64,000 nucleotides of DNA from an uncultured Acidobacteriaceae bacterium (GTDB lineage Bacteria; Acidobacteriota; Terriglobia; Terriglobales; Acidobacteriaceae). The notes under the pieces are model-generated. The model saw only the letters and a list, made by a program, of their open reading frames with translations, was not told the DNA's origin and ran no database searches. The position numbers and the translations under genes were made by a program. The first letter of the stretch is position 1; the number at the start of each line of letters is the position of its first letter. Below, in pieces: positions 11,541 to 55,775 of this stretch. The stretch is from positions 360,392-424,391 of the forward strand of contig CAWFKA010000009.1 in NCBI GenBank assembly GCA_963816335.1, read 5' to 3'.

Positions 11541-11627
11541 GCCGGGATGGCGGAACTGGCAGACGCAGCGGACTCAAAATCCGCCGAGGGCAACCTCATC
11601 GGGGTTCGACCCCCCGTCCCGGCACCA
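11541..11627 (+). tRNA. tRNA-Leu (anticodon CAA)
   Basis: 87-nt cloverleaf: acceptor GCCGGGA/TCCCGGC, anticodon stem GCGGA/TCCGC with loop CTCAAAA, a long variable arm, T-arm CGGGG-TTCGACC-CCCCG and an encoded CCA. Confidence 0.9.
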
Positions 11628-11699
11628 GTGTAAATATCTGATATAAAACCACTTGTCTCTTTCTCTAAGGTTGATCCCTGCCAGAAGGAGCCCTCTAAG

Positions 11700-11790
11700 T
11701 TTCGCCTAAAATTCGCTTTCGGTACAATTTCGGTACAGTCGAGCTAGTTATCCTGGGTGTAACTGTTTGACATGAAAAGACTTCTAAAAT
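11700..11790 (+). repeat. conserved att-arm block (type 1, tRNA-distal arm) with CGGTACA direct repeats
   Basis: TTTCGCCTAAAATTCGCTTTCGGTACAATTTCGGTACAGTCGAGCTAG... starts 73 nt after the CCA. A near-identical block lies at 25527 and a diverged copy at 55726. Confidence 0.7.
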
Positions 11791-12122
11791 TTCGTAGGCT
11801 CGAGCCGCCCTCTCGGAATCGTGGCGGATAACCGATCCGCGAAAGAGGTAGAGAGTAGAGCATGTTTTCCCCTGATGTAGCAGATACTTGGTTGAAATCG
11901 ACTGAGAAAACGGAACGCCACGTTTACGGAACGGCGACTCCTCCTCCAGGTGAATGTGCTTCCTGAATCATTGCTCAATGAGTGCACTAGAGATTTCGCA
12001 CTCAATCGAGAAGGTGCGCTGGTGATCTTGGGCAGTCTACGTCTCCGTAAACATCAACTTGAGGAGCATGGCACGGCGGCTCGTCTTGCCCGGTGCAAGG
12101 CGGGAGGGACATGAGCCGCCGC

Positions 12123-14516
12123 TCAACGGAAGGTGCCTGTAAGAACAACCGCTTTGCCGGGCGTGATGGTAACCATGGCAGATTGTTCGCCGTAGAGCAC
12201 ACGATATTTTACCCGGTGGGCGGCGGATAACTTGAGCTTGGTCAGGTGGCCAGCCGTCCACTCAATGTCCAACTTCCCTCCGCCTCGTAGGCGCACGCCC
12301 TTCAGGCTGCCGTTCTGCCAGAGATGGGGGAGTGCCGGCAATACGGTGATTTCGGATTCGGTGCTCTGGACCAGCATCTCGGTGATCGCCCCCGGGCCGC
12401 CGAGGTTGCCGTCGATCTGGAAGGGTGGGCAGAGATCGAACATGTCGGGAAGGGTGTTGTTTGTGATCAAGGTCTTCAAGTTGGCGTAGGCCTGCTCGGA
12501 ATTGTGCAGCCGCGCCCAGAGGGCTATTCTCCACACGTCGGACCAGCCCGTTTCGCCAATTCCTCGCAGGTCGAGTGACTTATTCGCGGCCACGGCGAGC
12601 GCGGGAGTGGACTTGAGACTGATGTCGTGTCCTGGATAAAGAGAGTAGAGATGCGAGACGTGGCGATGGTGCGGCTCTGACTCCGGATAGTCTTCGATCC
12701 ATTCCTGAAGCTGGCCGCGCTTGCCGACCTGGAGCGGAGGGAGGCGCTGTTCGGTGCGGTCCAGCCGGGATTGAAACTCGGCGTCGGTTGCGAGTATTTT
12801 GGCGGCGCGGCGGCAGTTCTCGAAGAGCTCGCGTATCAATTCGAGGTCCATGGTGGAGGCGTAGGTGAGGCTGGCGGGCTGGCCGTTGAGAAGGTAGGAG
12901 TTCTCGGGTGAGGTTGAGGGGCTTGTGACCAGGAGGCCGGCGAAGGGGCTGCCAGCCGGGGCCTCGACCAGGGTACCGAGGATGAATTCAGCGGCGCCCT
13001 TCATGGCGGGGTAGGCGTCGCGGCGGAGGAACTCGCGATCGCCGCTGAACTCGTAGTGGTCCCACATCTGGTTGGCGAGCCACGCTTGTCCCATGGGCCA
13101 AATGCCGCTGGTGGCGTCGACTGGGGCGGTTGCGCCCCAGATATCGGTGTTGTGGTGAAGCACCCAGCCGTCACTGTGATACTCCACCTGTGCCGTCTTC
13201 GCGCCGCTCACTCGCAATTCGCGGATCAGGTTCCAGAGCGGCTGCTGCGTCTCCCACAGATCTCCTGTGTCAGCCTGCCAGTAGTTCATCTCGAGGTTGA
13301 TGTTGGTGGTGAACTTGCTGCTCCACGCGGGGCTGAGATCCTGGTTCCAGATTCCCTGCAGGTTGGCGGGCGGGCCGCCGGGACGGGAGGAGGAAATGAG
13401 CAGATAGCGGCCAAACTCGAAGTAAAGCGCGAGCAGGGTGGGATCGTCGCTGGCGGCGAAGGCCTTGATGCGGCGGTCGGTTGTCTCGGTGGATTGATCT
13501 TCCCCGAGGCTTAGTTGAACGCGGTTGAACAGGCCCTGGAAATCTTGCAGATGCCTCTGCCTCAGCTCGGCGTAGGAGTGCTTCTCCGCGCGCTGAAGAT
13601 AGCCTTGCGCCGCGCCCACAGCGTCGCCGCTGATGTTCTGGAAGTTTTTAAAGCTGGTGGCGTTGCTGAAGAGGAGGGTGACCGCGTTGGCGCCGGAGAT
13701 CTCAAGGCTCCCGCCGGCGGCTCGCACCGTGCCTCCTTCGGGGAGCGCCTTCACCACTGCGGCGAACCGCATCCCCGGCTGGTCCCAGCCGCCGGTCCAG
13801 TTGCGTGGCGAGGCCGGCCGCGGCTGGATCTGACCAGTGAGCCGCAGCGAGTTCTCCGCGGTGCTTTCGACGCTGGAGCCTGTTTGCGGAGAATCCATGC
13901 GTAACGTAAACGCGAGCTGGCCTGGCTGGCTGGAGGTGATTCGAACGACTAGCACCTGGTCAGGAAAGGAGATGAAAGCTTCGCGCCGGAAGGTGGTGGA
14001 GCCGACCTTATACGTCGTCTCCGCGGTTGCGTCGTTGAGATTGAGGTCGCGGCGATAGTCGGTGGCCTGGCCATGGCCGGCGAAGTGCATCCGTAGATCG
14101 CAAAAGGGCTGGTAGGGCATCAACATTCTCGGCTGGCCCATCATGGACGACGCAGCCAGCTTTTCCGCATCAGCTACCTTGCCGGCGAAGATAAGACTCC
14201 TGATCTCGTCGAGGTGCGCATTGGAGTCGGGAGCCACATAGTCGCGCGGACCGCCTCCCCAGAGGGTGCTCTCGTTGATCTGGAGACGCTCATCCTCGGT
14301 GCCGCCGAAGACCATGGCGCCGATGCGGCCATTGCCCAGAGGCAATGCCTCGGTCCATGGTCCGGCAGGCTTGTCGTAGGCGAGCTTCAGGGGCGATTGA
14401 GCCACTGCATGGAAGGGATGGTACAGCGCCACCGTCAACAGCAGATTGAGCGCTAATTTTAGTTTGGATTGCATTCTCCCTCGCGTCCTTCCGGTCCTGC
14501 CATCCGTTCTCCTCAA
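12123..14516 (-). CDS. glycoside hydrolase family 95 (alpha-L-fucosidase-like)
   Basis: GH95 N-terminal signature PLGNGRIGAMVFGG...INESTLWGGGP, with typical size. The ATG at 14474 (MQSKLKLALNLLL...) gives a cleaner signal peptide than the TTG at 14516. Confidence 0.85.
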   Translation of the reverse strand: MRRTDGRTGRTRGRMQSKLKLALNLLLTVALYHPFHAVAQSPLKLAYDKPAGPWTEALPLGNGRIGAMVFGGTEDERLQINESTLWGGGPRDYVAPDSNAHLDEIRSLIFAGKVADAEKLAASSMMGQPRMLMPYQPFCDLRMHFAGHGQATDYRRDLNLNDATAETTYKVGSTTFRREAFISFPDQVLVVRITSSQPGQLAFTLRMDSPQTGSSVESTAENSLRLTGQIQPRPASPRNWTGGWDQPGMRFAAVVKALPEGGTVRAAGGSLEISGANAVTLLFSNATSFKNFQNISGDAVGAAQGYLQRAEKHSYAELRQRHLQDFQGLFNRVQLSLGEDQSTETTDRRIKAFAASDDPTLLALYFEFGRYLLISSSRPGGPPANLQGIWNQDLSPAWSSKFTTNINLEMNYWQADTGDLWETQQPLWNLIRELRVSGAKTAQVEYHSDGWVLHHNTDIWGATAPVDATSGIWPMGQAWLANQMWDHYEFSGDREFLRRDAYPAMKGAAEFILGTLVEAPAGSPFAGLLVTSPSTSPENSYLLNGQPASLTYASTMDLELIRELFENCRRAAKILATDAEFQSRLDRTEQRLPPLQVGKRGQLQEWIEDYPESEPHHRHVSHLYSLYPGHDISLKSTPALAVAANKSLDLRGIGETGWSDVWRIALWARLHNSEQAYANLKTLITNNTLPDMFDLCPPFQIDGNLGGPGAITEMLVQSTESEITVLPALPHLWQNGSLKGVRLRGGGKLDIEWTAGHLTKLKLSAAHRVKYRVLYGEQSAMVTITPGKAVVLTGTFR

Positions 14517-15179
14517 TCGTTTCTGCTTATCCGCGCACGATGACGCAGACTCATCGGTCCTGACTTGGTTGCTTCAAGCTGGTTTGAATCGCGACCTATC
14601 CTACATTATGGCAGCCGTGCGATCAGGGGCGCCTGGTCCGGTCGCGCCGGCTATTCCTTGCAAAGCCTCTCGGCTGTCAACAAGAAAGGACCTCTTCCGC
14701 AAGGCCGTCGAGGCCGGGGTTGTTGCATAAAGATCGACTTTCCTTCGGCGTCCAATCGTGACCTCTCCAACTGGTTCGGCGACACGGCGAGGGACGCCGC
14801 GGACGCGCATCTGCTGTTGGACGCGTGGATTCGCACGGACGACAGTGTCACGCGAACGGACCATATCAATGTGGATCTCTCGCCGGGTGGTGGTTTCGTC
14901 GGATGGATTCGCAAATAGGATCGCCGCTCGAACATTTGGTGAACTCACAACAAGCCGGGAACTCAAGCCATCCCGAGACCGAGTCCCAGAGTCAATCTGT
15001 CCCGCTGTTCATTGGCATGGTCAGCGCAGTGCACCTGCTCAACTGGCGAGAACAGGACTTACCGCTTATCGAGCGGGAGAACAACCCGGCAGCGGGTCAG
15101 TTTACGATTTGGCGATTTGTCGCCAATGCACGACAAAGTTACTTCAGGCTTCTTTGCCGTCAATTCGGGCAGGTCCAAG

Positions 15180-17945
15180 CTAATCCAGTCGCAAGGCCCT
15201 CACGGGGTCAATGGATGCCGCACGGCGTGCGGGGATCATTCCAGCAACGAATGCCGCCATTGCCAGGGTCACAATCGCGCCTGCCATCACGTTGAAGTCT
15301 GCGCTGGTGATCTCATAGAGCTGAGATTTCACAAATCGCACGCAGAGCAGCGCAACAGGGATTCCGATCGCCAGCCCGAGCGGCGGCTTGAATCATTGCC
15401 CCCCGCATCACCATCGCAATCACTCCTCTGCGTTCTGCACCGAGCGCCATGCGGATACCAATCTCCGGAGTCCGCCGCACAACGGAATACGCGGTCACGC
15501 CGTATAAGCCAATCAGTCGCCAGCAGCAGGGCCAATGCGCCAAAGAGCGTTGATAGTCGCGACATCATTCTGTCGGTGGAAAACCGATCGGCGATCTGAT
15601 CATCGAATGTCTCAAACTTCATCACGGTCAGGTTCGGATTGATGCCGGCAAGCGTAGTCCGGGCAAGTTTTTCCATGTCGTTCATCGGACGTTCGGTTTC
15701 GATGCACAATCGCTCCCAGATAGAGCGAATCATCTTTTTCAATCGGCACTTTTGAGCTGATCGACCGCTGCATCGTCGGCACGAAATACATTCGGTGATC
15801 CTTCCAACGCGCGCTGGTGTAGGCCGTGTCCTCCACCACTCCAACGATCTCAAAATCTCCGGGCGAATTCGGCCCCGGCGATCCGATGTGATGTCCGATC
15901 GGGTTTTCACCAGGACTGAAAAGCTTCTTTACGAGCGATTCGTTTACCACTGCGACCGGGCGTTGCAGCCGGCGTATCCCGAATGCTGATGCCGCGACCC
16001 ATCACAACGCGCGTTCCCACCGAATCGAAATACTCCGCGTTTGCCCGTATGACTGAGGCTACGACATGCTGGAAAGGCTGTCCCTGCACCTGAACGCCCC
16101 AGCCGTTGTTGTTGTCTTCCATCGGCGTATACGAGGCGATGCCCACTTTCAACACGCCCGGAAGCGCATGGAATCGGTCCTCCATGGTCCGGTACAGTGC
16201 CTCCAATTGGACTTGTGTATAGCCCGCTGCTTGAGGATTGATGTGCACGATGTACCGGTTCCTCGCGTCCAGCTTCAGATCTTTGCGCTCGAGTTTTCTC
16301 AGGCTCTGCAAGAACAACCCCGCGCCAACCAGCAGCACCAGGGATAGTCCCACCTGAAGTACGACGAGCGAACGCTGCATAAGAGAAGCTCCCGTCGTCG
16401 TCATTCCGCGCGCCGCTCCGCAGTGCGTCGATCGGATCCGCCTGCGCCGCAATCCAGGCCGGCGCCACGCCGAAGAGAAGTCCAGTGAGCAAGCGACAGC
16501 CCGCACGCAAATCCAAGAACGACAGCGACGGGCTGGCATGGATCGGAATATTTTGCGCTCCGGGGAAAGCCAACATCAACAGCATGCGCGCTCCTGCATA
16601 GGCAACGACGAGTCCGACGATACCGCCCATTCCAGCCAGCACGATGCTTTCCGTAAGCAATTGACGAATGATTCTTCCGCGCACTGCTCCCAGCGCGGCG
16701 CGCATTGAGATCTCCGCGCGACGTCCCATCCCGCGCACCAGCAGAAGATTGGCGATGTTAGCGCAGGCAATCAACAGAACGAGACCGGCAATCCACATCA
16801 GCAGATGCAGTTGCGATCCATACCCCTCCTGCATTGCCTGAATCCCCGCGCCGCCCGGCGTCAGCACCACATGGACTTTCGTCAGCAATGTCTTGCCCTG
16901 CTTCCGATGAAAAAAACTCGTCTCGTTGCAAGTGCCTGCCGCAGCAAGCTCAGTCACCTTCTCCTGGAGCGGAGCGATCGCCACGCCCGGCTTTATGCGC
17001 CCAACAATGTAGAGCCAATTCTGGTTAGGGTTGTGAACGTAGGGGACATTCGCCAGCACCGGCATCGTCTCGATCGGCAGGTAGAATTCCGGCGGATCGG
17101 TCGCCAGCCGGTCACCATAAAATCCCTCCGGCGCAATGCCAACGATTGTTACCGGCTTCGTATTGATCCAGAAGGTGCTTCCCACCACCGATGCATCGCC
17201 CGCATAATTTCGCTGCCAGGCCTCATAGCTCATCACCGCTGTCATGGGTGCGCCCTGCGTATCGTCTGCATCCATCAACAAGCGCCCAGCCTGCGGCTGC
17301 AGCCCAAAGGTGCGGAAGTAATTGCCGGAGACAAACTCGCCCATCACCGAGCGCGATGTCGTCTGCGATGCCATCGCGCCGCGCAATGACAGGCCGGTAG
17401 CCGAAGCCGGCCTGCATCGCGGCCAGCTCTTCAAATTCCGGCAGGTTTTTCTTCAGCTGCTCATACGCGTCGGTGGAGAACATGGCATAGTCGCCATTCT
17501 GCCGAAGCCCGGAACCCAGGCAGCAATCGTTGTTGTCGCCCAGGCGCACCAAAGATCCAGGATCGGTGACGGGCAGCTTTTTCAAGCAGCACCGCGTTCA
17601 CCAGCGTGAAGATCGCGGCATTTGCGCCGATTCCCAATGCCAGCGTCAGCAGCACCGTAACTGTGAATGCGGGCGTCTTTCTCAGCTGCCGAAGCGCATA
17701 ACGAATATCCTGGGCGTGGTTGTCGAGAAGGGTTATGCCGCGAGATTCACGGCAGTCTTCCTTGACACTGCCGAGACTGCCGAACTCAAGGCGAGTCTGC
17801 CGCATCGCCTCCTTCTGCGAGAGGCCCGCTCGAACATACTTCTCCACCTGTTGTTCAAGATGAAATGCAGTTCCTCGTCAAGTTCGTTTTCAACTGTGGT
17901 CCGCCGAAACAGAGATCGAAGACGGAAAATCAAATCGCTCAGCAT
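15180..17945 (-). pseudogene. ADOP-type (FtsX/MacB-like) ABC transporter permease, multiply frameshifted
   Basis: Typical N-terminus [28 protein letters not shown], then [25 protein letters not shown] and periplasmic segments, and the C-terminal end IPARRAASIDPVRALRLD*. These pieces are spread over at least 6 ORF fragments in different frames. Confidence 0.8.
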
Positions 17946-17955
17946 GCAGCACCTC

Positions 17956-18288
17956 CTAAACCGTTCCCAGCACCTGGGCCACCGCGGCGGTCAGTTTCGC
18001 CCAGGCGTCCTTCTCCACCTCGAGTTGCTCACGCCCACTCTTTGAGAGTTCGTAGTATTTGGCACGACGGTTGTTCTCCGACGTTCCCCAGCGAGCCTTG
18101 ATCAATCCACGACGCTCCAGCCGGTGCAGTGCCGGATATAGCGAGCCTTGCTGAATCCGCAGCACGTCACTCGACATCTGCTGGACACGCTCAGAGATGG
18201 CCCAACCGTGTTGGCGGCCAAGGGCAAGCGTGCGAAGAATGAGGAGATCCAGGGTTCCTTGTGGAAGGTCGATATGTTGGGCAGTCAT
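17956..18288 (-). CDS. PadR family transcriptional regulator
   Basis: 110 aa from the ATG at 18288: LDLLILRTLALGRQHGWAISERV...GSLYPALHRLERRGLI. It is preceded by AAGGGGA. The longer track ORF (to 18753) is an artefactual extension. Confidence 0.9.
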   Translation of the reverse strand: MTAQHIDLPQGTLDLLILRTLALGRQHGWAISERVQQMSSDVLRIQQGSLYPALHRLERRGLIKARWGTSENNRRAKYYELSKSGREQLEVEKDAWAKLTAAVAQVLGTV

Positions 18289-18302
18289 TGCTTCCCCTTT
18301 CG

Positions 18303-18338
18303 CTTCTACAGGAAAAACTATAACACTTCTTGTAGAAG
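18303..18338. promoter_or_regulatory. inverted repeat CTTCTACA-N20-TGTAGAAG, candidate PadR operator
   Basis: Lies 15 nt upstream of the padR start, in the divergent region facing the propeller gene. Confidence 0.3.
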
Positions 18339-18650
18339 TGCAAGGGGAACGGTCGATCTTGTCGTAAGTAGCTTGCCAGCAAAGAGGGCGCAGCGAGCGC
18401 CTTGTTGGTCTGAAGAACACGGCATGGTTCAGCGATGAGTGAGCACTGAGCGATTCAGAAACAGCAAAGCGGGATGCTTGGCGAGTGCTCCGTTTCCCGT
18501 TTCCTTCTTTTGTCCGAATGGGGATATAGTAGGCCCTCCAAGGAAAATTCCCAGGAAGAGAGAATCCCATGGATCCCAACGCACCTGTATTGGAAGTTAC
18601 TTTTGTCTCTAATGACAACGATAACAAGATCTTAGCCTGCTCCTCCAGCA

Positions 18651-20315
18651 ATGGCCAGTCCGGCGGGTGCCAGTCAAGTATGGTGGAACTTTCAGTACTG
18701 GGTCGTTTTTGTAGCCAACGACAGCTCGCATGCCGTACTGCTCTCAAATTCATCAGACGGCTTTAACTGGTCTGCGCCGATCCAAACGAATCAGAGGAGT
18801 CAGGCCGCGCCGTCGCTGACGGTCTTCAACGATCAGCTCTGGATCGCGTTCATCGCCGACGATTCGAGCAATCAAATCCTGCTGTGCTTTTCGGGCGACG
18901 GGACAAATTGGTCGGGCACGGTGACCACCGGACAGTCGAGCCGGCAGCCGGTCGGTCTGGCAGTCACTGATTCCCGGCTCGCGATGGCGTTTATCTCCAA
19001 TGACGGAACCAACTCGCTTCTTGCCGCTGTTTCGGCGGATGGGAAGCATTGGTCGATGGGATCGACCGGGCAAACATGCCAGGGCGCACCGGGGCTTTCG
19101 AGTCTGAACGGGCGGCTGTGGGTTGTGTTCCAGGCGAACGACTCGAGCAACACGCTGCTGACGTGTTCCTCGGGGGATGGCCTGAACTGGAGTGGACTGG
19201 CATCTACGGGGCAGTCGAGCAAACTAGCGCCGAATCTTGTGACCTACAACAACCAGTTATGGATGGCGTTTGTTGCGAACGACTCGAGCAACACGTTGTA
19301 CGTGATGTCTTCGTCGGATGGCAGTTCCTGGAGTGGGCTGACGAATGTGAATCAGTCGAGCAAGACGTCGCCTTCGCTATCGTCGAAGTTCATCCAAACG
19401 GGAACGATCCAACCGAAGTATCATGTGTTGAGCGTGATGTACGCACCTCCTGGGACCGAGGGGAAGGCCAACCCTTCGTCGGTGAGCTACTCGACGGGGA
19501 GTTCGTTGGGGACGACCGTTTCAACGACCTCGGCCTTCAAGTCGACGGTGAAAGTAGAAGCGGAAGGGACTGGCGGCGGTGCGTCGTTCGGGTACTCCCA
19601 CTCCAGCTCCAACACCGACTCGATCCAGATCACGAAGACGGAAGGATCGACGGAAACACTGGGCGGTCCGTCTAGCGACGGCATCGACCACAACCAAGAC
19701 CGCTTCTCTCTCTGGCTGAACCCAATCCTGACGGTGACGATTGGGCCGGGTAAGGCTGTGAACTGGAAACTGGGAGTCTCTGACGGTCCCATGAGGATCC
19801 AGGAGGTGACGGTCGCGCAACTTAAAAACCCAGCGCTGCTCTCGCCGGGGGTGAAGGCAGACTTCGACAAAGTAGGCATGACGACTGACGATTTCGCCAC
19901 GATTTTGGCTTTAAATCCGTTTGCGGCATCGGCCAACTATGTTCCCGACCCAAATCGCTATGAGCCGCTCAGTCAATCGATTCCGTATGATCCACCCTAT
20001 TCGGATCAGGGGCTCGGATCTGATGCCCATAGCTACACCGTTTCTACCGCGAACATCAACGCCAGTTCGCAGACGCTGGAGAGCAAATACTCCGTAGGTG
20101 TGAAGCTCAATCTCGACTTCGGAGTCTTCAAATTGAAGAGCTCCACCGAACTGGAGTGGACAAACAGCTCCACCGACAGCACAAGCACGGGCTCGACGCA
20201 GTCTGCGACGGTGACGATCACCGGGCCGGCCTATGGGTACACGGGACCCACGGATGTGCTGGTGTACTGGGACAAGCTGTATAACACCTTCGCATTCACG
20301 TTGACGTCTGGGTAG
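18651..20315 (+). CDS. Asp-box (BNR-like) beta-propeller protein with a Ser/Thr-rich beta-rich C-terminal half
   Basis: Five ~47-aa tandem repeats (LWxAFxANDSSNxLL..S.DGxNWSG....QSS..AP.L). The following ~300 aa are rich in alternating polar/hydrophobic strands. An extra repeat-like unit sits out of frame at 18569-18650. Confidence 0.6.
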   Translation: MASPAGASQVWWNFQYWVVFVANDSSHAVLLSNSSDGFNWSAPIQTNQRSQAAPSLTVFNDQLWIAFIADDSSNQILLCFSGDGTNWSGTVTTGQSSRQPVGLAVTDSRLAMAFISNDGTNSLLAAVSADGKHWSMGSTGQTCQGAPGLSSLNGRLWVVFQANDSSNTLLTCSSGDGLNWSGLASTGQSSKLAPNLVTYNNQLWMAFVANDSSNTLYVMSSSDGSSWSGLTNVNQSSKTSPSLSSKFIQTGTIQPKYHVLSVMYAPPGTEGKANPSSVSYSTGSSLGTTVSTTSAFKSTVKVEAEGTGGGASFGYSHSSSNTDSIQITKTEGSTETLGGPSSDGIDHNQDRFSLWLNPILTVTIGPGKAVNWKLGVSDGPMRIQEVTVAQLKNPALLSPGVKADFDKVGMTTDDFATILALNPFAASANYVPDPNRYEPLSQSIPYDPPYSDQGLGSDAHSYTVSTANINASSQTLESKYSVGVKLNLDFGVFKLKSSTELEWTNSSTDSTSTGSTQSATVTITGPAYGYTGPTDVLVYWDKLYNTFAFTLTSG

Positions 20316-47064: not shown

Positions 47065-47235
47065 AAGCTTCGCTAGACAATCGAGGCGGACAGAGATGGT
47101 CCGTGGGCCAACAAGAAAGCTCAAGAGGGCAAGCTTTCTATTTCCCCACGTCTTTCGTAGCGTTCGGCAGTTCAACCAGCGCAACGGCCTTTAACTTCCC
47201 CAAGGTGCAGGCAAACCAGAACTCTTAACTGTGAT

Positions 47236-47273
47236 CCATGCTGCGCGGTTGCAGGTTCGTCCGCGCAGCATGG
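47236..47273 (-). terminator. hairpin CCATGCTGCGCGG-N12-CCGCGCAGCATGG directly after the TBDR stop
   Basis: 13-bp perfect stem 7 nt beyond the stop at 47280, with no U-tract. Confidence 0.35.
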
Positions 47274-47279
47274 CTTCGC

Positions 47280-49568
47280 TTAGTACTTGAATCGGTAGCG
47301 GATTTCGCCATAAATCTGCCGAGGATCGTTGTAGTGGAAGCCGCCGAAGGTAAGGCTGTTGTCGAGCAGGACCCGATGATTGGTCACGTTGAGACAAGTT
47401 GCGGAGAGCGATATTCGTTCGCCGAAATCCTTTGCGGCAGAGAGGTCAAAGGTGGTGTGTGAAGGCAGGTAGGCTCCTGGGTAAGGAGACGGCGGATCCT
47501 GTTGTCCGTTGGTGAATCCCGAGCCGTAGTAAACGTTCGTTGATGCGTAAATGTGACTCGGCAGAGTCGCATTAAAACCGACATTCAGGGTGTCGCGCTG
47601 ATCATGGTCCACCGGGGTGTAGTCAAAGCCAGAATCACATGCCGTCGATCCAACAGGAGTGCAGATGAGTCCGCCGGTAATGTTCCCGCGTTGTTGTGCA
47701 ATCTGGTTGGAATAGGCAAGATGAGCCTGCCCTAAGCGCCAGATGCGTGGCGAACGAAGGGTCAACTCCCAGGCCTGGATGAGTGCCCCATCCACCGTGA
47801 CGGGGTAATAGATGCTTGAATTGCCGATATTGGAGTGGTCGAGGAAGTTGTTCACCCTATTCTGGAAATGATCTGCGTCGAGAAGCCATCCCTTGTACGG
47901 AATCTGCACGCCGAACTGATACTCCTCATCGCGCTCTCCATAGAGTGGAACAAAGGCTGTGTTATTGGCGTTCGCATAGTCGACCACCGGCCCTGACGCT
48001 GTCAGCAACGGGGGCGGCTGATAGTACTTCCCCCAGAATCCACGAAACACCCAGTGGAGCTTCGGTAGCTCGAAGGCAATCCCAAAACGGGGATCGATTT
48101 GGTGTTCCGTGATGTCGGAAACGAAATTCGACTGACGAAGGCCGGCTATGAGTGTGAGCCAGGGAGTTGCCTTGTAGTTGTCAGAGATGTATTCCTCGAT
48201 GAGGCCGCCGCTGGCTGAGTCTGTAGTGCTGAAGTTCTCAAAGCTGCCGTCGTTGAAGATGGAGCCGAACAGATAGCTGTCGTGTTGACCCCAGCTATAG
48301 ATGCCGGCTTGAATTGTGTTCCGAGCGATATTGGTGTTAATTCCAGCTTGCAGTCCGCCGTAGTTGGTCGTCCGATCCGCGGTCGTGGCGACGGGGTAGT
48401 CATTCGGGTTAGCCGAGTAGTTGGCGCTGTTGTAGTGGTAGAACGGGGAGACCTCAAGCATGGTTGCTGCGTTGAAAGTATGTGCCCACGTTACGGCGGT
48501 CATTCCATCCGTCTCATGTTGTCCGTCTCGCAGTCCCTGGGAGGGATAGAACTGGTTCTGGTAGCTGTTGGGGTCTGGATCATAGGGAATCTGAAAGTAG
48601 TCCGCACGCAGCTGGCCGACAACACGGAGCTGGTCCTGTGGAGTACGGTTATAAATCAGCGAAGTGAAACCGCCATAGCCGTTGGCAGCATCGTGATAGA
48701 CCTCGCTGATGGGCGGCGATAGCCCGTAGTCGGTACGATTACCGTTGAGGCTGGCGTAGTAAGCGAACTTCTGTGTGTGGCCACCGAAGCTCAGTTGGTC
48801 GTTGGTCTGCCAGTAGTTGCCGAGGCTTACGATCAGTTCGCCTTCATGGTCGCGTTCAAATCCGTTGCGCGGCGCAACATTGAAGACACCGTAGGTCCGA
48901 TCTCCCACATCGGCGGCATAACTACCCCGCTGTATTTCCAGATAATTGATATCTTTTGGGTCGATCTGAGGGCCAATGTTGCTGGCGATATTTGTGTTCG
49001 GAATTTCGACCCCGTCGATCAGCCAGCTCACTTGATGACCACCGCGAATGTGGAGCATGTCGTGGGTCATGTAGGCACCTGGAACATAGTCGGTAATCAT
49101 CTCCATTCCGTAACTGCGGCTCGCCCCCGGAGTCTGCGTGATGTCTACGTGGTTCACGGTAGTTGTCGGAGTGGCGGTGTCTACATTTGTGACGTTTGCT
49201 TCCGCCTCTGCCGAGACGGACTGCTGCACGGTCGCGATCGGTAACTCAAAGTGCAAAATGGGCGAAGTCCCCGAGGCAAGCATCACGAGTTGTGTCTGTG
49301 AGGCAAAGCCAGGCTGAGAGACCGTTAGTTTGTACTCGCCAAAAGAGACGATCTGAAAGCGGAAGGCTCCGTCGCGATCAGTCTCAAGAGTTTTTACCAA
49401 ACTGGAATTGACGCTCGCTAAGACGACCTTGGCGCCGGAGATTGGGCGGTGCTGCGGATCATGAACAATTCCCTGCACCTGCCCATAGACCGTAGCGTGG
49501 GCACGATGCGCCGAAATTATGAGGACGAATAGAAAAAAGACCGGGAGAAGCAATGCGAACTTGCGCAT
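47280..49568 (-). CDS. TonB-dependent receptor (CarboxypepD_reg N-domain)
   Basis: The start is taken at ATG 49568 (MRKFALLLPVFFLFVLIISAHRAHA). It has GIVHDPQHRPISGAKVVLASVNS...DGAFRFQIVSFGEYKL, a plug, a barrel and a C-terminal EIRYRFKY. The 5' extension in the track ORF is Arg/Pro-rich and not protein-like. Confidence 0.9.
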   Translation of the reverse strand: MRKFALLLPVFFLFVLIISAHRAHATVYGQVQGIVHDPQHRPISGAKVVLASVNSSLVKTLETDRDGAFRFQIVSFGEYKLTVSQPGFASQTQLVMLASGTSPILHFELPIATVQQSVSAEAEANVTNVDTATPTTTVNHVDITQTPGASRSYGMEMITDYVPGAYMTHDMLHIRGGHQVSWLIDGVEIPNTNIASNIGPQIDPKDINYLEIQRGSYAADVGDRTYGVFNVAPRNGFERDHEGELIVSLGNYWQTNDQLSFGGHTQKFAYYASLNGNRTDYGLSPPISEVYHDAANGYGGFTSLIYNRTPQDQLRVVGQLRADYFQIPYDPDPNSYQNQFYPSQGLRDGQHETDGMTAVTWAHTFNAATMLEVSPFYHYNSANYSANPNDYPVATTADRTTNYGGLQAGINTNIARNTIQAGIYSWGQHDSYLFGSIFNDGSFENFSTTDSASGGLIEEYISDNYKATPWLTLIAGLRQSNFVSDITEHQIDPRFGIAFELPKLHWVFRGFWGKYYQPPPLLTASGPVVDYANANNTAFVPLYGERDEEYQFGVQIPYKGWLLDADHFQNRVNNFLDHSNIGNSSIYYPVTVDGALIQAWELTLRSPRIWRLGQAHLAYSNQIAQQRGNITGGLICTPVGSTACDSGFDYTPVDHDQRDTLNVGFNATLPSHIYASTNVYYGSGFTNGQQDPPSPYPGAYLPSHTTFDLSAAKDFGERISLSATCLNVTNHRVLLDNSLTFGGFHYNDPRQIYGEIRYRFKY

Positions 49569-49668
49569 GGACAAATCGACCTCCGCACCACGGGTGTGGC
49601 GAGCGTAGCAATGAATGAGATTGCAAGAGCGAGCCCGAACCGAGCTTTGACGAGGCGTGGTAGGAAAG

Positions 49669-50055
49669 CTAGAGGAGGAGGCTGGGAGGGCCGCGCTTCT
49701 GGCGGCTGCGATCGAGGGAGAGGCGATAGAGGGCTTCAGTCTGCGCGTGAATCGCGGGGTGACTGGCGATCTGGGCGTAATGGGTGGCAGAGGCCGCGGG
49801 CGCACCGTGGAACGGGAATGACGATGCAGTGACTGCGCGTGGGTAGAAGGCGCAGCGTTGCGGTGTCTGGCGCGCCTGGGTTCCAAGGCCCGCTGAGCGC
49901 AGGGCCCGATCCGTCATGGTGCAATGATGGTTACCATCGCGGCGGCAGCACGCCGGGAGACTTGCTTCGGGGTCGGAAGAAGAAAGCGCGAGGAGCGGCG
50001 CGGCCATGAACGAGCCGATCAGAGTGAGCATCAAAATGGCCGTAAATCGCCGCAT
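49669..50055 (-). CDS. small secreted Cys/His protein (paralogous in layout to 46611-46937)
   Basis: 128 aa from ATG 50055 with signal peptide MRRFTAILMLTLIGSFMAAPLLALS, then ACCRRDGNHHC, ending ...LYRLSLDRSRQKRGPPSLLL. It lies upstream of, and co-oriented with, TBDR 47280-49568. Confidence 0.5.
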   Translation of the reverse strand: MRRFTAILMLTLIGSFMAAPLLALSSSDPEASLPACCRRDGNHHCTMTDRALRSAGLGTQARQTPQRCAFYPRAVTASSFPFHGAPAASATHYAQIASHPAIHAQTEALYRLSLDRSRQKRGPPSLLL

Positions 50056-50766
50056 GGAGAACGTAGTGTAAGCGAGATCACACGCAAGACGCAATTTGCG
50101 AGCCTGCCTGGAGTGAGGGTTGGCGCGCCATTGCGAACGAACCACCGCGGCAAAAGGACATCGCAGTTCCCGTCAAAGCGCACCTTGCTTGTCCGAATTA
50201 CGCATTATGCGACGAGGGGCTGTCACGATTCCGCAGTGATTCAGACGTTCGACATTCCGCAAGGCTGGGTTGCGCCCGGGCAATTGCATCACCGAGGCAA
50301 CTCTCTGCGCAAGTAAGCAGCAAATCAAATGCGTCCGTTATCCTGGACGACGGGTCAGCGGAAATAGGGCCTACACCAACCCTAGCCGCAGGAGAAGGTT
50401 ACTGGGCCTGGTTGGTCACGGAGGGCACTCGAAGTGCTGATCGTAAAGATGGGTAGCATGAATTTGGAAAAGATGTTACTCTAACGTTTCCCCGGCAGGA
50501 TGTCTCTTTTCGACTGGAATTTGCATGCAGCAAGTGGGAAAACTTCGCGTTGCGTCAGTGGGTTGCCTCCTAAACGGCTGACCGAATGGCCCTACCCAGA
50601 GATTCTCTTTGAGTTCGGTGGAATCCTGCTTTGCAACTCCCTCCCTTGCCCAATCGGCCCGGCTCCTGTCGAGTGACTGGATCCAAACTCCTGTTTGTTG
50701 TTGTTGACCGAGCGGACACGTTATACCCCAGAACATTCATTTGAAGACTCGGAGGCAGGGAGATTC

Positions 50767-53250
50767 ATGAGGGCCGGTAACACGATTTATAGATTGTTCA
50801 TACCGCTCTTATTGCTATTCGTTCTTTGGGAGCCTCGTCTCGCAATAGCTCAGGCCATCTCTGGTCCAAAAAAGATGAAGGCTACTTTACTCATGGTTGC
50901 TGCGCAGGAGAGGGCGCCGGTCGCCACCAGTGACAAAGCTTATACGCCTCAGGTGACGGGGACAGTCGTTGACACGTCTGGCGCAACGATTGCCGGGGCT
51001 ACCGTAGAGGTTCGGAGCGCGGACAGCGCCGTCCAAAAACTGACGCAGTCAGACAACACCGGCTCCTTCAGTATTTCTGGACTCTCGACAGGTGATTATC
51101 GAATTATCGTATCGAGTCCCGGTTTTGCAACCAAAGAGATGCCTTTCGCGATCGGGATCTCCGCGGAACCGGGGCCGTTGCGCATTTCCCTGGCGGTGAA
51201 CGCCGTGAGCACCACGGTGGAGGTGCAGGGCCGGGAGGATAGCCTGATAGGAATCGCCGAATCCGCGACGCAGGGGACGGTGGGCGCAAAGCAACTCGAG
51301 GATCGTCCGCTGCTTCGTTCGGGGGAGATTCTGGAGGCAGTTCCCGGTCTGATCATCACGCAACACGCGGGGGGCGGTAAGGCCAACCAGTATTACGTTC
51401 GCGGGTTTAATCTCGACCACGGCACAGACTTCGCCATCTTCATCGACGGTATGCCTCTCAACCTGCCTTCGCACGCGCACGGCGAGGGGTATTCGGACAT
51501 GAATATTGTGGTGCCGGAGTTTGTGCAGCGGTTGAATTTCGAGAAGGGTCCTTACTACGCGGATATCGGCAACTACGGCTCAGTTGGATCGGCGAACGTG
51601 CAGTATTTCAAGACGCTGCCGCAGAACTTCGTCCAGGCGGAAGTGGGCATGTACGACTATGCGCGGGCCGTTTTCGGAGTTGCGCAAACGCTCGGCCCGG
51701 GTACTCTGCTGTACGGCGGAGAAGCGTATTACGATGACGGCCCATGGACGCATCCGGATGCGTATAAGAAGTTCAACGGGCTTGTAACGTACAGCCAGGG
51801 CGGCAGCACGAATGGCTTCAGCATGACGGCTCGCGGGTACCACGGGAAATGGAATTCGAGCGACCAGATTGCCGAGAACGCAGTGCCCCTCGTTGGTGTC
51901 TTCGGCACACTGAACACGACGGACGGTGGCAATTCACAGCGTTATAGCCTGCAGGGTGAATGGCATCGCCAAGGCGCGGATTCGGCGACGACGATGCTGG
52001 GCTATGGATTCTATTACGATCTCGATTTATTCTCAGATTTCACTTACTACCTGACGGACATCAATCGCGGCGACCAGTTTGAGCAGCAGGATAAGCGCTG
52101 GGTGGCGGGACTGGCTGCAGCGCACACAATTTTCAGCCGATGGTTTGGACACAGGGTGGAGAATACGTTCGGCGTGCAGGTTCGCAACGATTGGATCCAC
52201 AACGGCCTTTTCCAGACGGAAGATCGCGTACGCGTGGACAAAACTGATTCGGACACTGGTAACACTCTACCCGCGACTACACAGGAGGATCGGTTTACTG
52301 ACACGCAAGTTGGTCTCTATGCGCAAAACACAATCCAGTGGGCGGAGAAATTCCGCTCAGTTTTGGGGCTGCGCGGCGACCTGCAGTATTTTGATGTAAC
52401 CAGCCTGGTGGAGTCGGCCAATTCCGGCACGGCGAGCAAGTTTCTGCCCAGCCCGAAATTAAATCTGATTTTCGGTCCGTGGTTCAATACGGAGTTCTAT
52501 GCACAGGGCGGATTCAGTTTTCACAGCAACGACGGGCGGGGCACAACGCAGACGATCGAACCGATCTCGGGAGAGAACCCTTATCCCGGTACGCCGGCCA
52601 CGCCGATTCCTGCCCTGATACCAACCAAAGGCGCGGAGGTCGGCGTCCGCACACTGGCTGTACCACACCTGCAGAGCACACTCTCGCTCTGGCATCTACA
52701 CAGTGCTTCCGAGCTGCAGCAGTCCGGCGATACCGGCGGCACGACTGCTTCGAAACAGCCGAGTAACCGCTATGGCGTCGAGTGGGCGAACTATTACACG
52801 CCACGAGAACATCTGGCTTTTGATTTTGACTTCGCGGATTCCAAGGCGCTTTTTACAACAATCGACGAAGACGATGCTGCGCCGGACAGCCCGGGCGGCA
52901 GGTATGTTCCGGAGGCGGTTGAGCTGGTGATTTCGGCGGGCGTGACGGTGCAGCAGTACAAAAACTTTTGGGGGAGTTTGCATCTGCGCGCCTTTGGCCC
53001 GCGCAATTTGACGTCCGACGCAATCTACCGCTCAAGCTCAACACTCTTGCTCAACGCGGAAGTTGGCTATCACTTCAATGAGAAATGGCGCGTTTCGGCT
53101 CAATTTCTCAATTTGCTTGACCGCAGCGATCACGACATTGACTACGCGTATGAGTCCCGGGTATCGCCAACGGCCGAGGCAGAGTTCACCAACGTCTTCC
53201 ATCCGGTCGAACCCTTCCAGGTACGATTTCTGCTGGAAAGAACTTTTTGA
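50767..53250 (+). CDS. TonB-dependent receptor (CarboxypepD_reg N-domain), candidate nickel/cobalt receptor
   Basis: ATG at 50767 after GGAGGCAGGGAG, with a signal peptide. GTVVDTSGATIAGATVEVRS..NTGSFSISGLSTGDYRI, a plug (NQYYVRGFNLDHGTDF) and a barrel ending FLLERTF. It is convergent with the nikR / His-rich pair. Confidence 0.85.
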   Translation: MRAGNTIYRLFIPLLLLFVLWEPRLAIAQAISGPKKMKATLLMVAAQERAPVATSDKAYTPQVTGTVVDTSGATIAGATVEVRSADSAVQKLTQSDNTGSFSISGLSTGDYRIIVSSPGFATKEMPFAIGISAEPGPLRISLAVNAVSTTVEVQGREDSLIGIAESATQGTVGAKQLEDRPLLRSGEILEAVPGLIITQHAGGGKANQYYVRGFNLDHGTDFAIFIDGMPLNLPSHAHGEGYSDMNIVVPEFVQRLNFEKGPYYADIGNYGSVGSANVQYFKTLPQNFVQAEVGMYDYARAVFGVAQTLGPGTLLYGGEAYYDDGPWTHPDAYKKFNGLVTYSQGGSTNGFSMTARGYHGKWNSSDQIAENAVPLVGVFGTLNTTDGGNSQRYSLQGEWHRQGADSATTMLGYGFYYDLDLFSDFTYYLTDINRGDQFEQQDKRWVAGLAAAHTIFSRWFGHRVENTFGVQVRNDWIHNGLFQTEDRVRVDKTDSDTGNTLPATTQEDRFTDTQVGLYAQNTIQWAEKFRSVLGLRGDLQYFDVTSLVESANSGTASKFLPSPKLNLIFGPWFNTEFYAQGGFSFHSNDGRGTTQTIEPISGENPYPGTPATPIPALIPTKGAEVGVRTLAVPHLQSTLSLWHLHSASELQQSGDTGGTTASKQPSNRYGVEWANYYTPREHLAFDFDFADSKALFTTIDEDDAAPDSPGGRYVPEAVELVISAGVTVQQYKNFWGSLHLRAFGPRNLTSDAIYRSSSTLLLNAEVGYHFNEKWRVSAQFLNLLDRSDHDIDYAYESRVSPTAEAEFTNVFHPVEPFQVRFLLERTF

Positions 53251-53339
53251 CAAATCCGGCGGTTGTCATCCTGCTTATAGAAACTAGCAGGTCTACCCCC
53301 AATATCTATTTCGGTTCCGCTCCTTGTGGGCTCTTAACA

Positions 53340-53534
53340 CTATTCATGAGTATGCTCGTGGTAGTGATCATGGGAATGCGAGTGCGTAACCTCGTCGTGC
53401 GTATGCTCACGCGTGTGCTTTGTGCCAGCAGCCGGTGGGTTGGGATGAGAATGATCGTGGTGCTCGTCGTCATGAGAATGTTCGTGAGTTTGTGTCAATG
53501 TAACGTGGTCGTGACTGTGAGAATGCTCAGTCAT
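53340..53534 (-). CDS. histidine-rich small metal-binding protein (Hpn-like composition)
   Basis: 64 aa, about one third His arranged as HxH/HxxH runs (MTEHSHSHDH...HSHSHDHYHEHTHE). AGGAGG precedes the ATG. It lies 200 nt downstream of nikR on the same strand. Confidence 0.7.
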   Translation of the reverse strand: MTEHSHSHDHVTLTQTHEHSHDDEHHDHSHPNPPAAGTKHTREHTHDEVTHSHSHDHYHEHTHE

Positions 53535-53733
53535 AAATGCCTCCTTGGGACATTCCCAAACATTATGACGGAGGATTGTGCGATTGCCTGATTCAGCAGG
53601 CTGACGGTGACCTGGCGTCGGAAGGGGGGTTAAAGCTAGATAGCAGTATCCCGGCCCATCTGGATAGAGGCAACGTGACTTTCTTTCAGTGGCCGCGGTT
53701 CGCCGGGCACAATGCTTCGGAAACTTGGACGGT

Positions 53734-54168
53734 CTAGTGCGAGTGTATGGAGCTCTTGAGATTCTTGCCGGATTTTGTCAGGACGAGTTTTCCGAGTTCT
53801 ACGCCACGCAAAGCGAGCATGCCGTCGGCAACGGCCTGGATGTCTCTTCCTCTGCCTTTCATGATAATGACTTCCAGGCAATAGTTGTGATCTAGATGGA
53901 CATGCGTGGCCGCGAGAACCATCGTGCCCGCAACGTGTTGGACCTCTGTCAGCTTTTGCGCAAGATTCGGAACGTGATGGTCGTAGACCAGCGTCAAAGT
54001 GCCAACCACTGGCTCATTCGATGCAACAGTCTCCGACAGAAGCGCCTCTCGTATAAGATCGCGAAACGCCTCCGAGCGGTTCGCGTAACCGCGCTTGGCA
54101 ATGAGCCGATCGAATTCCTTCAAAAGATCATCTTCGAGCGAAACGCCTGTTCTGCTCAAATGTGACAT
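53734..54168 (-). CDS. nikR: nickel-responsive regulator NikR
   Basis: 144 aa from ATG 54168 after GGAGAA. It has a ribbon-helix-helix N-terminus (RTGVSLEDDLLKEFDRLIAKRGYANRSEAFRDLIR) and an ACT-like C-domain with the His cluster (VYDHH...ATHVHLDH..CLEV). Confidence 0.9.
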   Translation of the reverse strand: MSHLSRTGVSLEDDLLKEFDRLIAKRGYANRSEAFRDLIREALLSETVASNEPVVGTLTLVYDHHVPNLAQKLTEVQHVAGTMVLAATHVHLDHNYCLEVIIMKGRGRDIQAVADGMLALRGVELGKLVLTKSGKNLKSSIHSH

Positions 54169-54302
54169 CTCGTTTTCTCCATCCCGATTGTAATGGGGTA
54201 CAGATGACTTGTGAGTACTCATTGCGTCCGTCGCTCTCGCCGGCCGACTATGCGCAATCTGCTGGAGCAATCGCTCGTAAGGAAATGTCGATGGGCGGGC
54301 TG

Positions 54303-55552
54303 TAAAGGTTTGTCCCTATCAAACCCAAGGAATGCCGTAAAAGAGTTTGGGGTAGCTTCGTAGCTGGCGCGTGGAGAGCAACGGGATCCGGAGAGCGACG
54401 GCTCTACGTATTAGACGAATCGTCGCTGGCATCAACCCGGCAGGTGCATGACTTTTTGAATCGTCTCCATCCGAATGACCGCGTGCTTTTGGTCGGCGAC
54501 CGTCGGCAACATGAAGCGGTCGAGGCCGGGCGGCCGTTCGCGCAACTCCAGGACGCAGGCATGAAGACTGTGAAGCTCCAAGAGATCGTGCGCCAGAAAG
54601 ATCCTGAGCTGAAGTGGGTAGTCGAGCAGCTCGCTCGAGGCGAAGTGCGCGAAGCCATCCAGAATCTTCAACGGCAGGGTCGGGTCCATGAGGTCCCGGT
54701 CAACGATGAACGACTTACTGCCATCGCAAGGAGTATGCCAGAGCCCCGGAGAAAACATTGGTGGTTTCCCCTGACAACCGCTCCCGCATGGAGTTCAATG
54801 CGCGCATCCACGCCGAATTGCAATCACTTGGCGTTGTCAGCAATGAGGAGCATCGCATTCGAACGCTTGTTCCGCGTCAGGATCTTACAGGGGCAGACGG
54901 CACTTGGGCCGGGCGGTACGAAGTGGGCGACGTATTGCGCCACTCGCGAACATCGCGGGAGACGGGCATCACTAAGGGGAAATACGCACAGGTGAATAGC
55001 ATCGACGCTTCGAACAACCGGCTGACAATCGAGTTACGAGACCGCGGAGTGCACCTATGATCCACGGCGGCAGCAAGGAGTCACCGCACCAGCCCACGAA
55101 TTGAAAGTTGCGAACCGTGAGTTGGGAGCCATCGAGCACATCGGCCAGGACGGAACGTTGTGCCTGAAGATGGGCGCAAAGTTGAACTCGATCCGCAAAG
55201 GCAGCTGCATCTCGATTACGGCTATGCCATGACAAGCCATTCCAGCCAGGGCCAGACCGCCGATCGTGTCCTGATACACGTGGACACTGAATTGGGCGCT
55301 AAGGAACTGATCAACAGCCGCATGGCCTATGTAGCGATCTCACGGGGCGCATATGATGCGCAGATTTATACATCTAACGCATCCACATTGGGGAAGGAAC
55401 TCACCCGAGATGTACGCCATCCCTCTGCACTTCAACCAGAATCGGTGACGCAAAAGAACGAGCCTAAGCCCGCGCATACTCTGGAACTGTGCCCAAACGA
55501 ACGAAATTACCCCTCCCGGAACCATCCGGAGCCGCAATGTGAAGTCCGTTAA
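54303..55552 (+). pseudogene. conjugative relaxase (MobF/TraA-type) RecD-like helicase domain, 5'-truncated and frameshifted
   Basis: LYVLDESSLAS...RVLLVGDRRQHEAVEAGRPF...EIVRQKD, then VVSPDNRSRMEFNARIH, then LDYGYAMTSHSSQGQTADRVLIHVD...MAYVAISRGAYDAQIYT. These lie in at least 4 frames, and no relaxase (HUH) domain or Walker A is present. Confidence 0.75.
55487..55498 (+). repeat. att-arm motif type 2 copy (CTGTGCCCAAAC)
   Basis: Identical 12-mer to 43232-43243, about 100 nt upstream of the third tRNA fragment. Confidence 0.45.
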
Positions 55553-55600
55553 GTCGTTGTAAGCGCGGCATCTTCAGTACTTGGCTGAGCCCCGTCAAGG

Positions 55601-55656
55601 ACTCAAAATCCGTCGGAGGCAACTCCATGGGGGTTCAACTCCCCCTCCCGGCACCA
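55601..55656 (+). repeat. partial tRNA-Leu copy (anticodon loop to CCA), att core
   Basis: ACTCAAAATCCGTCGGAGGCAACTCCATGGGGGTTCAACTCCCCCTCCCGGCACCA. The upstream sequence cannot form the acceptor or D arms. Confidence 0.85.
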
Positions 55657-55725
55657 TTGGAAGCGAGTGACAAAAACACTTAAGTCGAACTAGAGCAGTT
55701 GATGTCACCAATCGGCGCGACTCGA

Positions 55726-55775
55726 TTTTCGCCTTAAATTTGGATTTCAGTACAGTTCCGGTACAGTTCGGCTTA
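55726..55775 (+). repeat. diverged copy of the type-1 tRNA-distal arm block
   Basis: TTTTCGCCTTAAATTTGGATTTCAGTACAGTTCCGGTACAGTTCGG starts 70-71 nt after the CCA and aligns with 11700 and 25527. Confidence 0.55.

Follow-up and report, generated by a model that had tools for sequence, protein, structure and literature searches.

Integrase-less islands in tandem at a tRNA-Leu(CAA) gene of an uncultured acidobacterium: probable products of site-specific accretion

Results and Discussion

An array of islands at a single tRNA gene

We examined a 64,000-nucleotide (nt) stretch of an uncultured Acidobacteriaceae genome (assembly GCA_963816335.1, contig CAWFKA010000009.1, positions 360,392 to 424,391; hereafter the window), in which a tRNA-Leu(CAA) gene is followed by islands separated by 3' fragments of such a gene. 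The sequence itself points to a metagenome-assembled genome of the Acidobacteriaceae, by its identity with locus L007 (see below), by PadR-MacB and CarboxypepD_reg-TonB receptor genes typical of the family, and by best homologues that come from acidobacteria. Three islands are complete, and the beginning of a fourth extends rightwards out of the window. Judged from the sequence, the array is the product of tandem site-specific accretion, and it appears to hold two different element families that use one tRNA. We also favour, with some caution, the interpretation that it is a trans-dependent array resembling cis-mobilizable elements (CIMEs), in which islands that have no integrase of their own would be served by one encoded elsewhere.

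Displaced 3' fragments of tRNA-Leu(CAA)

The sole tRNA that ARAGORN predicts in the window is the intact tRNA-Leu(CAA) at 11541-11627 (+), which forms the attL attachment site of the array. Three partial copies follow in the same orientation, at 25399-25454 (fragment 1, the core and 3' half borne by island 2), 43131-43184 (fragment 2, borne by island 3) and 55601-55656 (fragment 3, the core and 3' half borne by island 4). Direct reading and a fuzzy search confirmed the coordinates that had been proposed for them, and the anticodon-loop start ACTCAAAATCCG and the end TCCCGGCACCA are common to all three. Comparison of the anticodon stem-loops places the crossover core, GCGGA-CTCAAAA-TCCGC, at ~11568-11584. 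The fragments open at ACTCAAAATCC and close at GGCACCA; in the Williams 2002 classification, integration at the anticodon-loop sublocation is said to leave a displaced direct repeat running from the anticodon loop to the 3' CCA.

Self-blastn of the window, which had been suggested as a check on these repeats, gave five matches, with E values from 3e-32 to 4.5e-5. The segment 11564-11786 matched 25391-25613 (228 nt, 74.6%, E = 3e-32), 25259-25454 matched 42991-43184 (202 nt, 71.3%, E = 9e-14), 43131-43191 matched 11572-11635 (93.8%, E = 1.5e-17), 55599-55662 matched 11570-11633 (82.8%, E = 5e-11) and 55727-55768 matched 25527-25567 (85.7%, E = 4.5e-5). The repeat array is far above chance. The fuzzy search found no additional tRNA-Leu fragment or arm between 55.8 and 64 kb. 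An Rfam scan of positions 1-64000 at the gathering threshold returned zero families, the tRNA family included, despite the tRNA-Leu called by ARAGORN. We also observed CCCCTCCCGGAACCA, one mismatch from the tRNA acceptor end, at 55510-55524. It falls within the right arm of island 3, 77 nt ahead of fragment 3, and may be what is left of an older junction or a chance match.

As the original prediction had it, the fragments are not copies of one another. The T-arm GGGGGTTCAACTCCCCC is common to the fragments at 25.4 and 55.6 kb, and fragment 2 equals the resident gene minus two single nucleotides, both of them T-stem deletions. Paired changes between the fragments keep the variable-arm stem (GAGG/CCTC, GATC/GGTC and GGAG/CTCC), and the T arms likewise occur in alternative forms. 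Because of these compensatory changes and alternative T arms, the fragments look like once-functional halves of slightly different tRNA-Leu genes. The variable arm of fragment 1, GATC-GCAA-GGTC, matches that of the tRNA in another acidobacterial genome (locus L012, see below).

Arm sites are matched within islands

Island 1 (11628-25398, 13.8 kb), island 2 (25455-43130, 17.7 kb) and island 4 (from 55657, with its tRNA fragment from 55601) carry CGGTAC-type arms. Their left block, about 72 nt past the CCA, consists of TTTCGCCTWAAATTYGC and then two direct TTTCGGTACA repeats with 11-nt spacing. It lies at 11700-11739 (+) in island 1, as TTTCGCCTAAAATTCGC and two direct TTTCGGTACA repeats 11 nt apart, at 25527-25566 in island 2 and at 55726-55767 (+) in island 4, as TTTCGCCTTAAATTTGGATTTCAGTACAGTTCCGGTACAGT. 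These blocks start 73, 73 and 70 nt past the CCA, which bears out the fixed spacing claimed for them. A 23-mer of the left arm, TTTCRGTACARTTYCGGTACAGT, was found at 11717, 25544 and 55745, each time on the plus strand (three matches; 100 shuffles gave none). The right arm of island 1 (25259-25398, +) is 140 nt long and opens with TCGGTACTGTAGCGGTACAC, that is, with two CGGTAC sites 11 nt apart; that of island 2 spans 42991-43130. In both copies the right block begins exactly 140 nt before the core, also as predicted; the right-arm 20-mer TCGGTACTRTAGCGGYACAC occurs at 25259 and 42991 (two matches, none in shuffles), and in an alignment of the right arms homology begins exactly at the paired CGGTAC sites. 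The repeats of islands 1, 2 and 4 follow the consensus CGGTAC(A/T)(A/G)T with 11-bp spacing.

Island 3 (43185-55600, 12.4 kb) is without CGGTAC motifs and has exact GTGCCCRAAC repeats of its own, on the left at 43234 and 43245 (GTGCCCAAAC/GTGCCCGAAC, 11-nt spacing) and on the right at 55489 (GTGCCCAAAC). Arm type agrees within each island and not across the junctions, CGGTAC for islands 1, 2 and 4 and GTGCCC for island 3. Such matching is what an integration model predicts, because each element brings its own attP.

We propose that the tRNA-Leu(CAA) gene has been an integration hotspot, into whose anticodon loop at least four elements would have inserted successively by tyrosine-integrase recombination, using the core GGA-CTCAAAA-TCC. 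Every incoming element would have supplied its own tRNA 3' half followed by its own left arm, while the previous 3' half was displaced to the newcomer's right end, behind the right arm. The 3' half of the resident tRNA (from 11572) would thus have come with island 1 and, since a newcomer displaces the earlier 3' half rightwards, island 1 would be the newest of the series and island 4 the oldest.

Unequal crossing-over could in principle also produce direct repeats of like orientation, and the window does hold two GH79-like paralogues; on such a view the tRNA flank would have undergone local duplication or homologous recombination, with no integration at all. This explanation is effectively refuted. 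By self-blastn the islands have only their ends in common, their cargo being wholly different, and the compensatory changes in the fragments are typical of different functional tRNA-Leu genes. The two arm types are unrelated and paired within islands, both stand beside tRNA-Leu cores and integrases in unrelated genomes (see below), and the GC content of islands 1 and 2 (~57-63%) is above that of the flank upstream of the tRNA (51-56%). The claim that the repeats are att scars of integration at the anticodon loop is thus upheld by the within-island matching of arms, the different cargo and the compensatory changes.

The islands have no recombinase gene

Genes of the islands were called by Pfam on 40 large open reading frames (ORFs), together with 148 further open frames of at least 75 amino acids (aa) outside the confident genes. 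No recombinase or transposase was detected between 11.6 and 60 kb. None of the 40 large ORFs matched a recombinase family, and none of the 148 frames matched Phage_integrase, Resolvase, Recombinase (large serine) or a transposase family at E <= 0.01. In tblastn searches of the window, 11 cognate integrases gave only translated arm-motif matches or E > 0.01, and the proteins of loci L042, L044 and L047 (described below) detected no integrase or backbone remnant in islands 1, 2 and 4. These negative results agree with the earlier statement that the three fully contained intervals encode neither a tyrosine nor a serine recombinase.

A tyrosine integrase family is associated with the CGGTAC arms

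When 185,579 species genomes were scanned for exact-pattern matches to the left-arm 23-mer, 21 loci were obtained (L001-L021). ARAGORN found a tRNA gene for Met, Leu-CAA, Leu-TAA or Phe 18-120 nt upstream, in the same orientation, in 18 of the 21, and at the other three tRNA fragments precede the 23-mer. At the tRNA-Met, Phe and Leu(TAA) loci the 23-mer is followed by the ATG of a tyrosine integrase gene, 18-32 nt downstream at those that we inspected, so that the idea that the 23-mer might be coding sequence for the integrase N-terminus was rejected. In at least 13 other genomes the identical 23-mer has a tRNA gene on one side and a tyrosine integrase start codon on the other, and a third, inverted copy of the motif (ACTGTACCG) is often present at the integrase-bearing loci. 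The hosts of these loci are Acidobacteriaceae, Burkholderiales and Porticoccaceae; as a 23-nt motif, TTTCGGTACA(A/G)TT(T/C)CGGTACAGT, the sequence is identical in all three groups (e.g. L003 2143-2165, L010 4908-4930).

The integrases are ~365 aa long and match Pfam Phage_integrase with E values of 1e-29 to 1e-34; no arm-binding domain was called in them by Pfam. Their N-terminus, MATxVKTPSGTWKAVIRKxGWPT, is highly conserved. They are 65-78% identical to the acidobacterial protein of locus L025 (gene at 546-1631) and 65-89% identical across Acidobacteriaceae, Burkholderiales and Porticoccaceae. At E <= 1e-30 no fewer than 5,612 proteins belong to the family. The anticodon stem-loop core GGA-CTNANAA-TCC is common to every target tRNA, and this looks like a very promiscuous element family in which the overlap sequence alone may switch the target.

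Since the motif adjoins tyrosine integrases in other genomes, the CGGTAC repeats are tied to a real recombinase family. For comparison with lambda-type attachment sites, repeats lie on both arms with 11-nt spacing and the same motif stands beside integrase genes in at least 13 genomes, the integrases having a conserved N-terminus in which Pfam calls no arm-binding domain. The original prediction that the repeats look like arm-type sites is strengthened by this association, and we infer that integrases of the family bind to these putative sites. The right-arm block had no match in a scan of viral contigs.

Integrase-bearing members of the family also occur at tRNA-Leu(CAA), in two IMG/VR contigs (L022, L023) and in two metagenome loci with an acidobacterial-type tRNA (L024, L025). 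The P0002 integrase (L026-L029) adjoins a complete tRNA-Leu(CAA) and is followed by RepB-primase, restriction-modification, HipA and SIR2 genes, while the P0015 integrase is found in L035-L040, its copy in L038 adjoining a complete tRNA-Leu(CAA). An acidobacterial-type tRNA-Leu(CAA) is thus adjoined by a family integrase in L024, L025, L026 and L038, which makes the idea of an integrase encoded elsewhere concrete. In L035 the family integrase has a tRNA-Leu fragment beside it, and upstream of this fragment there is a complete tRNA-Leu(CAA) of a different kind. This locus (9540-9850) has the complete tRNA-Leu(CAA), ~150 nt later the acidobacterial-type fragment, and then arm sites and the integrase. 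The fragment begins as far back as the D arm, its anticodon loop is mutated (CTAAAAA), and simple anticodon-loop integration does not account for this arrangement. In L023 (7392-8426 and 8529-9843) a different integrase ends ~100 nt before a tRNA-Leu(CAA) fragment, after which come CGGTAC-type arm sites and a MATxVKT-family integrase; this IMG/VR provirus looks like two integrase-bearing elements in tandem, the host being proteobacterial.

An integrase might be encoded in cis just beyond the window, in island 4 or further to the right, in which case one live element would be accompanied by decayed neighbours. No right end was found in the window for island 4, which begins at 55601, and tandems of one functional element with CIMEs have been documented (PMC5704250). 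We consider this very unlikely: in intact relatives the integrase gene begins 20-35 nt past the left arm block, and island 4 has no integrase sequence there.

Mobilisable in trans or fossil?

Copies of the integrase-less architecture are also present in three other Acidobacteriota genomes (L007, L012 and L020). When the six integrase-less left ends, three from the window and these three, were compared, mean pairwise identity was 90% in the arm block, 42% in the preceding spacer and 33-50% in the following sequence. Over about 50 nt past the block, islands 1 and 2 show homology (~75%) that extends weakly to all six ends, and this is not integrase sequence. Since homologous non-integrase sequence follows the block while the cargo is unrelated, loss of the integrase is probably older than the divergence of islands 1 and 2. 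In at least four genomes, integrase-less left ends with this homologous sequence adjoin cargo that is unrelated. In the exact-motif scan an integrase frame follows the motif in 10 of 10 acidobacterial tRNA-Met copies (one apparently frameshifted) and in none of the six tRNA-Leu(CAA) copies. L020 has a junction of right arm, fragment and left arm that is co-linear with 25259-25568 of the window, which indicates that such arrays recur. The window and L007 agree at 97% identity from the tRNA as far as 11985, at which point L007 is interrupted by an IS91-like element, and the L007 sequence upstream of the tRNA gives no alignment to the window; the shared left end next to an unalignable flank is a sign of transfer.

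We would explain these observations as follows. In intact relatives CGGTAC arms are paired with integrases that start MATxVKTPSGTWKA and are encoded right after the left arm. The CGGTAC-type islands would descend from an integrase-less ancestor and may remain recombination-competent. Their movement would then depend on a family integrase from outside, provided either in trans or, through accretion with an intact element that arrives, in cis. The tRNA-Met or tRNA-Leu elements that are common in Acidobacteriaceae might donate the integrase, and mobilisation in trans is plausible.

The most serious competitor is a pure fossil with the same integration origin, in which integrases and backbones were deleted in place, the att sites have not yet decayed and the islands are immobile. 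We rate this as a substantial possibility, though one that falls short of an even chance. It would suit the lack of a recombinase in the islands and a cargo of ordinary metabolic genes, and several further findings that count in its favour weigh at the same time against trans-dependent CIME-like islands. Pseudogene fragments are widespread in all islands (GH97, MacB, pectate lyase, GH79 and relaxase), and such abundance fits long residence and decay. The T stem of fragment 2 is damaged by its two deletions. A tblastn search with all ORFs of every related locus found no mobility backbone remnant in islands 1, 2 and 4, so that their derivation from a complete element is deduced from their ends only. 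No whole second copy of an island was found elsewhere, in a search for homologues of the island 1 GH95 and their context; the closest relative of this GH95 (88% aa identity) lies in an ordinary chromosomal glycosidase cluster without tRNA or arms. Other points bear on the CIME-like interpretation alone. The six integrase-less copies represent only ~4 independent lineages, and L007 may represent the window's own species, which makes the argument from horizontal transfer weaker. The 64 kb of the window yielded no family integrase, which leaves any helper in this cell hypothetical.

Set against the fossil explanation is the contrast between an arm block at 90% identity and an adjacent spacer at 42%. 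Integrase-less left ends with homologous post-block sequence are also found beside unrelated cargo, in four genomes or more, and the split between six of six integrase-less Leu(CAA) copies and ten of ten integrase-bearing Met copies is hard to obtain by independent random decay. Each deletion would moreover have had to take the whole integrase gene, starting shortly after the block, and yet spare the block. The pattern of arm-block conservation leans towards CIME-like islands.

A bolder version of this interpretation, which we put forward as speculative and on present evidence unlikely, is that the CGGTAC-type islands are not decayed elements but self-perpetuating integrase-less cassettes of 10-20 kb, with an attP kept by selection, that parasitise the integrases of a very widespread element family found across phyla, tRNA-Leu(CAA) serving as a capture platform. 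The kept attP would comprise a lambda-like core and both arms, the integrases may recognise the generic core GGA-CTNANAA-TCC, and service in trans may come, for example, from the common tRNA-Met elements with their identical arm motif.

Some features of the left ends were recorded separately. Small ORFs after the left arms were considered as conserved genes and rejected, as none is common to different copies. A hairpin-like conserved sequence lies ~75-85 nt past the left arm block in islands 1 (GGCGGATAACCGATCCGCG, 11822-11842) and 4 (GCGGATAATCGGTCCGCG, 55839-55856) and also in L007; a weaker counterpart, TGCGGATG..., was seen in L012 and L020. The left end of L007 carries, 358 nt past the CCA of its tRNA-Leu, an inserted gene (5124-7109, -) for a 662-aa protein in which Phage_integrase and SAM-like domains are fused to Zn_Tnp_IS91 and Y2_Tnp. 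A further ORF of L007, ~6 kb from the tRNA and separate from this gene, encodes a XerC/D-like recombinase.

Island 3 belongs to a second element family

The only mobility gene of the array is found at the right end of island 3, at 54390-55483 (+), where Pfam (AAA_30 and UvrD_C_2) and NCBIfam (TraA/TraI) detected the frameshifted 3' remnant of a TrwC-type relaxase/helicase gene. By tblastn this stretch matches the TrwC relaxase of L042, a protein of 916 aa, over residues 531-916 (43-45% identity, E = 3e-59), and the N-terminal relaxase domain is absent. Among IMG/VR contigs, L042 and L044 have the doubled GTGCCCAAAC motif ~100 nt upstream of a core fragment of tRNA-Leu(CAA) or Leu(TAA), and L047 has it at the 3' end of an integrase gene with an Arm-DNA-bind_4 domain. 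According to Pfam, L042 encodes a T4 coupling protein and the 916-aa TrwC relaxase just inside the arm with the doubled motif. The relaxase remnant, together with arms in common with L042, suggests that island 3 is a decayed conjugative or mobilizable element.

Relation to known systems

CIMEs are defined as elements that keep attL and attR, have lost the genes for integration and transfer, and derive by decay from integrative and conjugative elements (ICEs) or integrative and mobilizable elements (IMEs) (PMC5704250). Read from their sequence, the islands fit the structural part of this definition: core repeats and matched arms in direct orientation bound islands 1, 2 and 3, there is no recombinase gene, and the sole transfer gene is the truncated relaxase pseudogene. 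As to derivation, island 3 has its TrwC remnant and L042-type arms, and islands 1, 2 and 4 are linked to complete elements by their ends alone. The structure of the array also fits the three-step scheme set out in the same work, in which an element integrates, decays to a CIME and is joined by others through accretion. The array is not an integron, the window having no integrase, and the boundaries being tRNA halves with long arms and not attC sites.

The CIMEs related to ICESt1 and ICESt3 of Streptococcus (Pavlovic 2004; Bellanger 2011; as summarised in Guedon et al. 2017, PMC5704250) likewise keep attL and attR, have no integration or transfer genes and stand in direct tandem at the 3' part of a target gene, and mobilisation by the integrase of a related incoming element is proposed for them, as it may be by analogy here. 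The present array differs in its target, a tRNA anticodon loop in an acidobacterium, and in having three complete islands and part of a fourth, two att families, long lambda-like arms with repeats spaced 11 bp apart and, in islands 1, 2 and 4, no backbone remnant. The tycheposon islands of Prochlorococcus (bioRxiv 10.1101/2020.12.28.424599) resemble the array in being tRNA-proximal and hypervariable with full-length and partial tRNAs, in the displacement of older elements deeper by successive integrations, in consisting mostly of material without an integrase and in carrying niche-adaptive metabolic cargo. However, the integrase family is different here, unrelated by the tests made, and the internal att sites, both arms included, are well kept and not scattered and degenerate. 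The ssrA islands of Dehalococcoides (PMC3146451), with metabolic cargo, are reportedly also bounded, one after another, by tandem direct repeats of a small-RNA 3' end, but their target is tmRNA, encoded by the single-copy ssrA gene. At the asparagine tDNAs of Klebsiella (PMC4891358) one tRNA gene is reused by different islands with tRNA fragments at their boundaries, although most of those islands keep a P4-like integrase, and none is present here.

The accretion process is thus a known one, and the array is a well-documented new example in a phylum whose mobile elements are little characterised and where elements of this kind have barely been described. Some 44 kb of accessory genome of a probable soil acidobacterium, including glycosidases, TonB-dependent receptors, efflux genes and metal regulation, has been built at one tRNA gene, a clear example of this mode of bacterial genome growth. 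The analysis adds a family of integrases, together with the arm motif and the core consensus that go with it, that is common to Acidobacteriaceae and Proteobacteria at 65-89% identity, and a second, TrwC-relaxase-associated family on the same tRNA. Were mobilisation in trans to take place, blocks of ordinary metabolic genes could travel between soil bacteria without a mobility gene of their own, and island finders based on integrases would overlook them. Islander and TIGER reportedly catalogue tandem islands by mapping tRNA fragments, most of these islands having a P4-like integrase.

Cargo of the islands

The Pfam calls gave island 1 a GH95 fucosidase, a truncated MacB/FtsX permease, PadR, pectate-lyase-like fragments and ORFs without a family. 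Island 2 holds SDR, carboxylesterase, YceI and SnoaL genes, a split GH79-like gene, an FG-GAP/Big_3 protein, TonB, Zincin_1 and again ORFs without a family. Island 3 encodes three TonB-dependent receptors and NikR, and to the right of 55.7 kb there are GH9, SulP, Usp and Nramp genes. Many pseudogene fragments were found among the 148 extra frames. A blastn comparison with L031 identified 14686-15061 as the remnants of a GH97 gene, and a related metagenome contig has the same gene within a GH97-GH2-GH95-GH95 cluster. These remnants adjoin the MacB/FtsX permease gene (14544-17434, -), which lies beside PadR and encodes 496 aa, with more MacB_PCD/FtsX matches in separate frames; it appears from its sequence to be a broken ADOP-type gene. 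Finally, the GH79-like gene of island 2 (31751-33401, -), which is split over two frames, has an inverted counterpart in the GH79-like gene at 9711-11312 (+) directly upstream of the tRNA, with ~67-73% DNA identity. The two are paralogues, one in the core genome and one island-borne, the island copy being probably a pseudogene.

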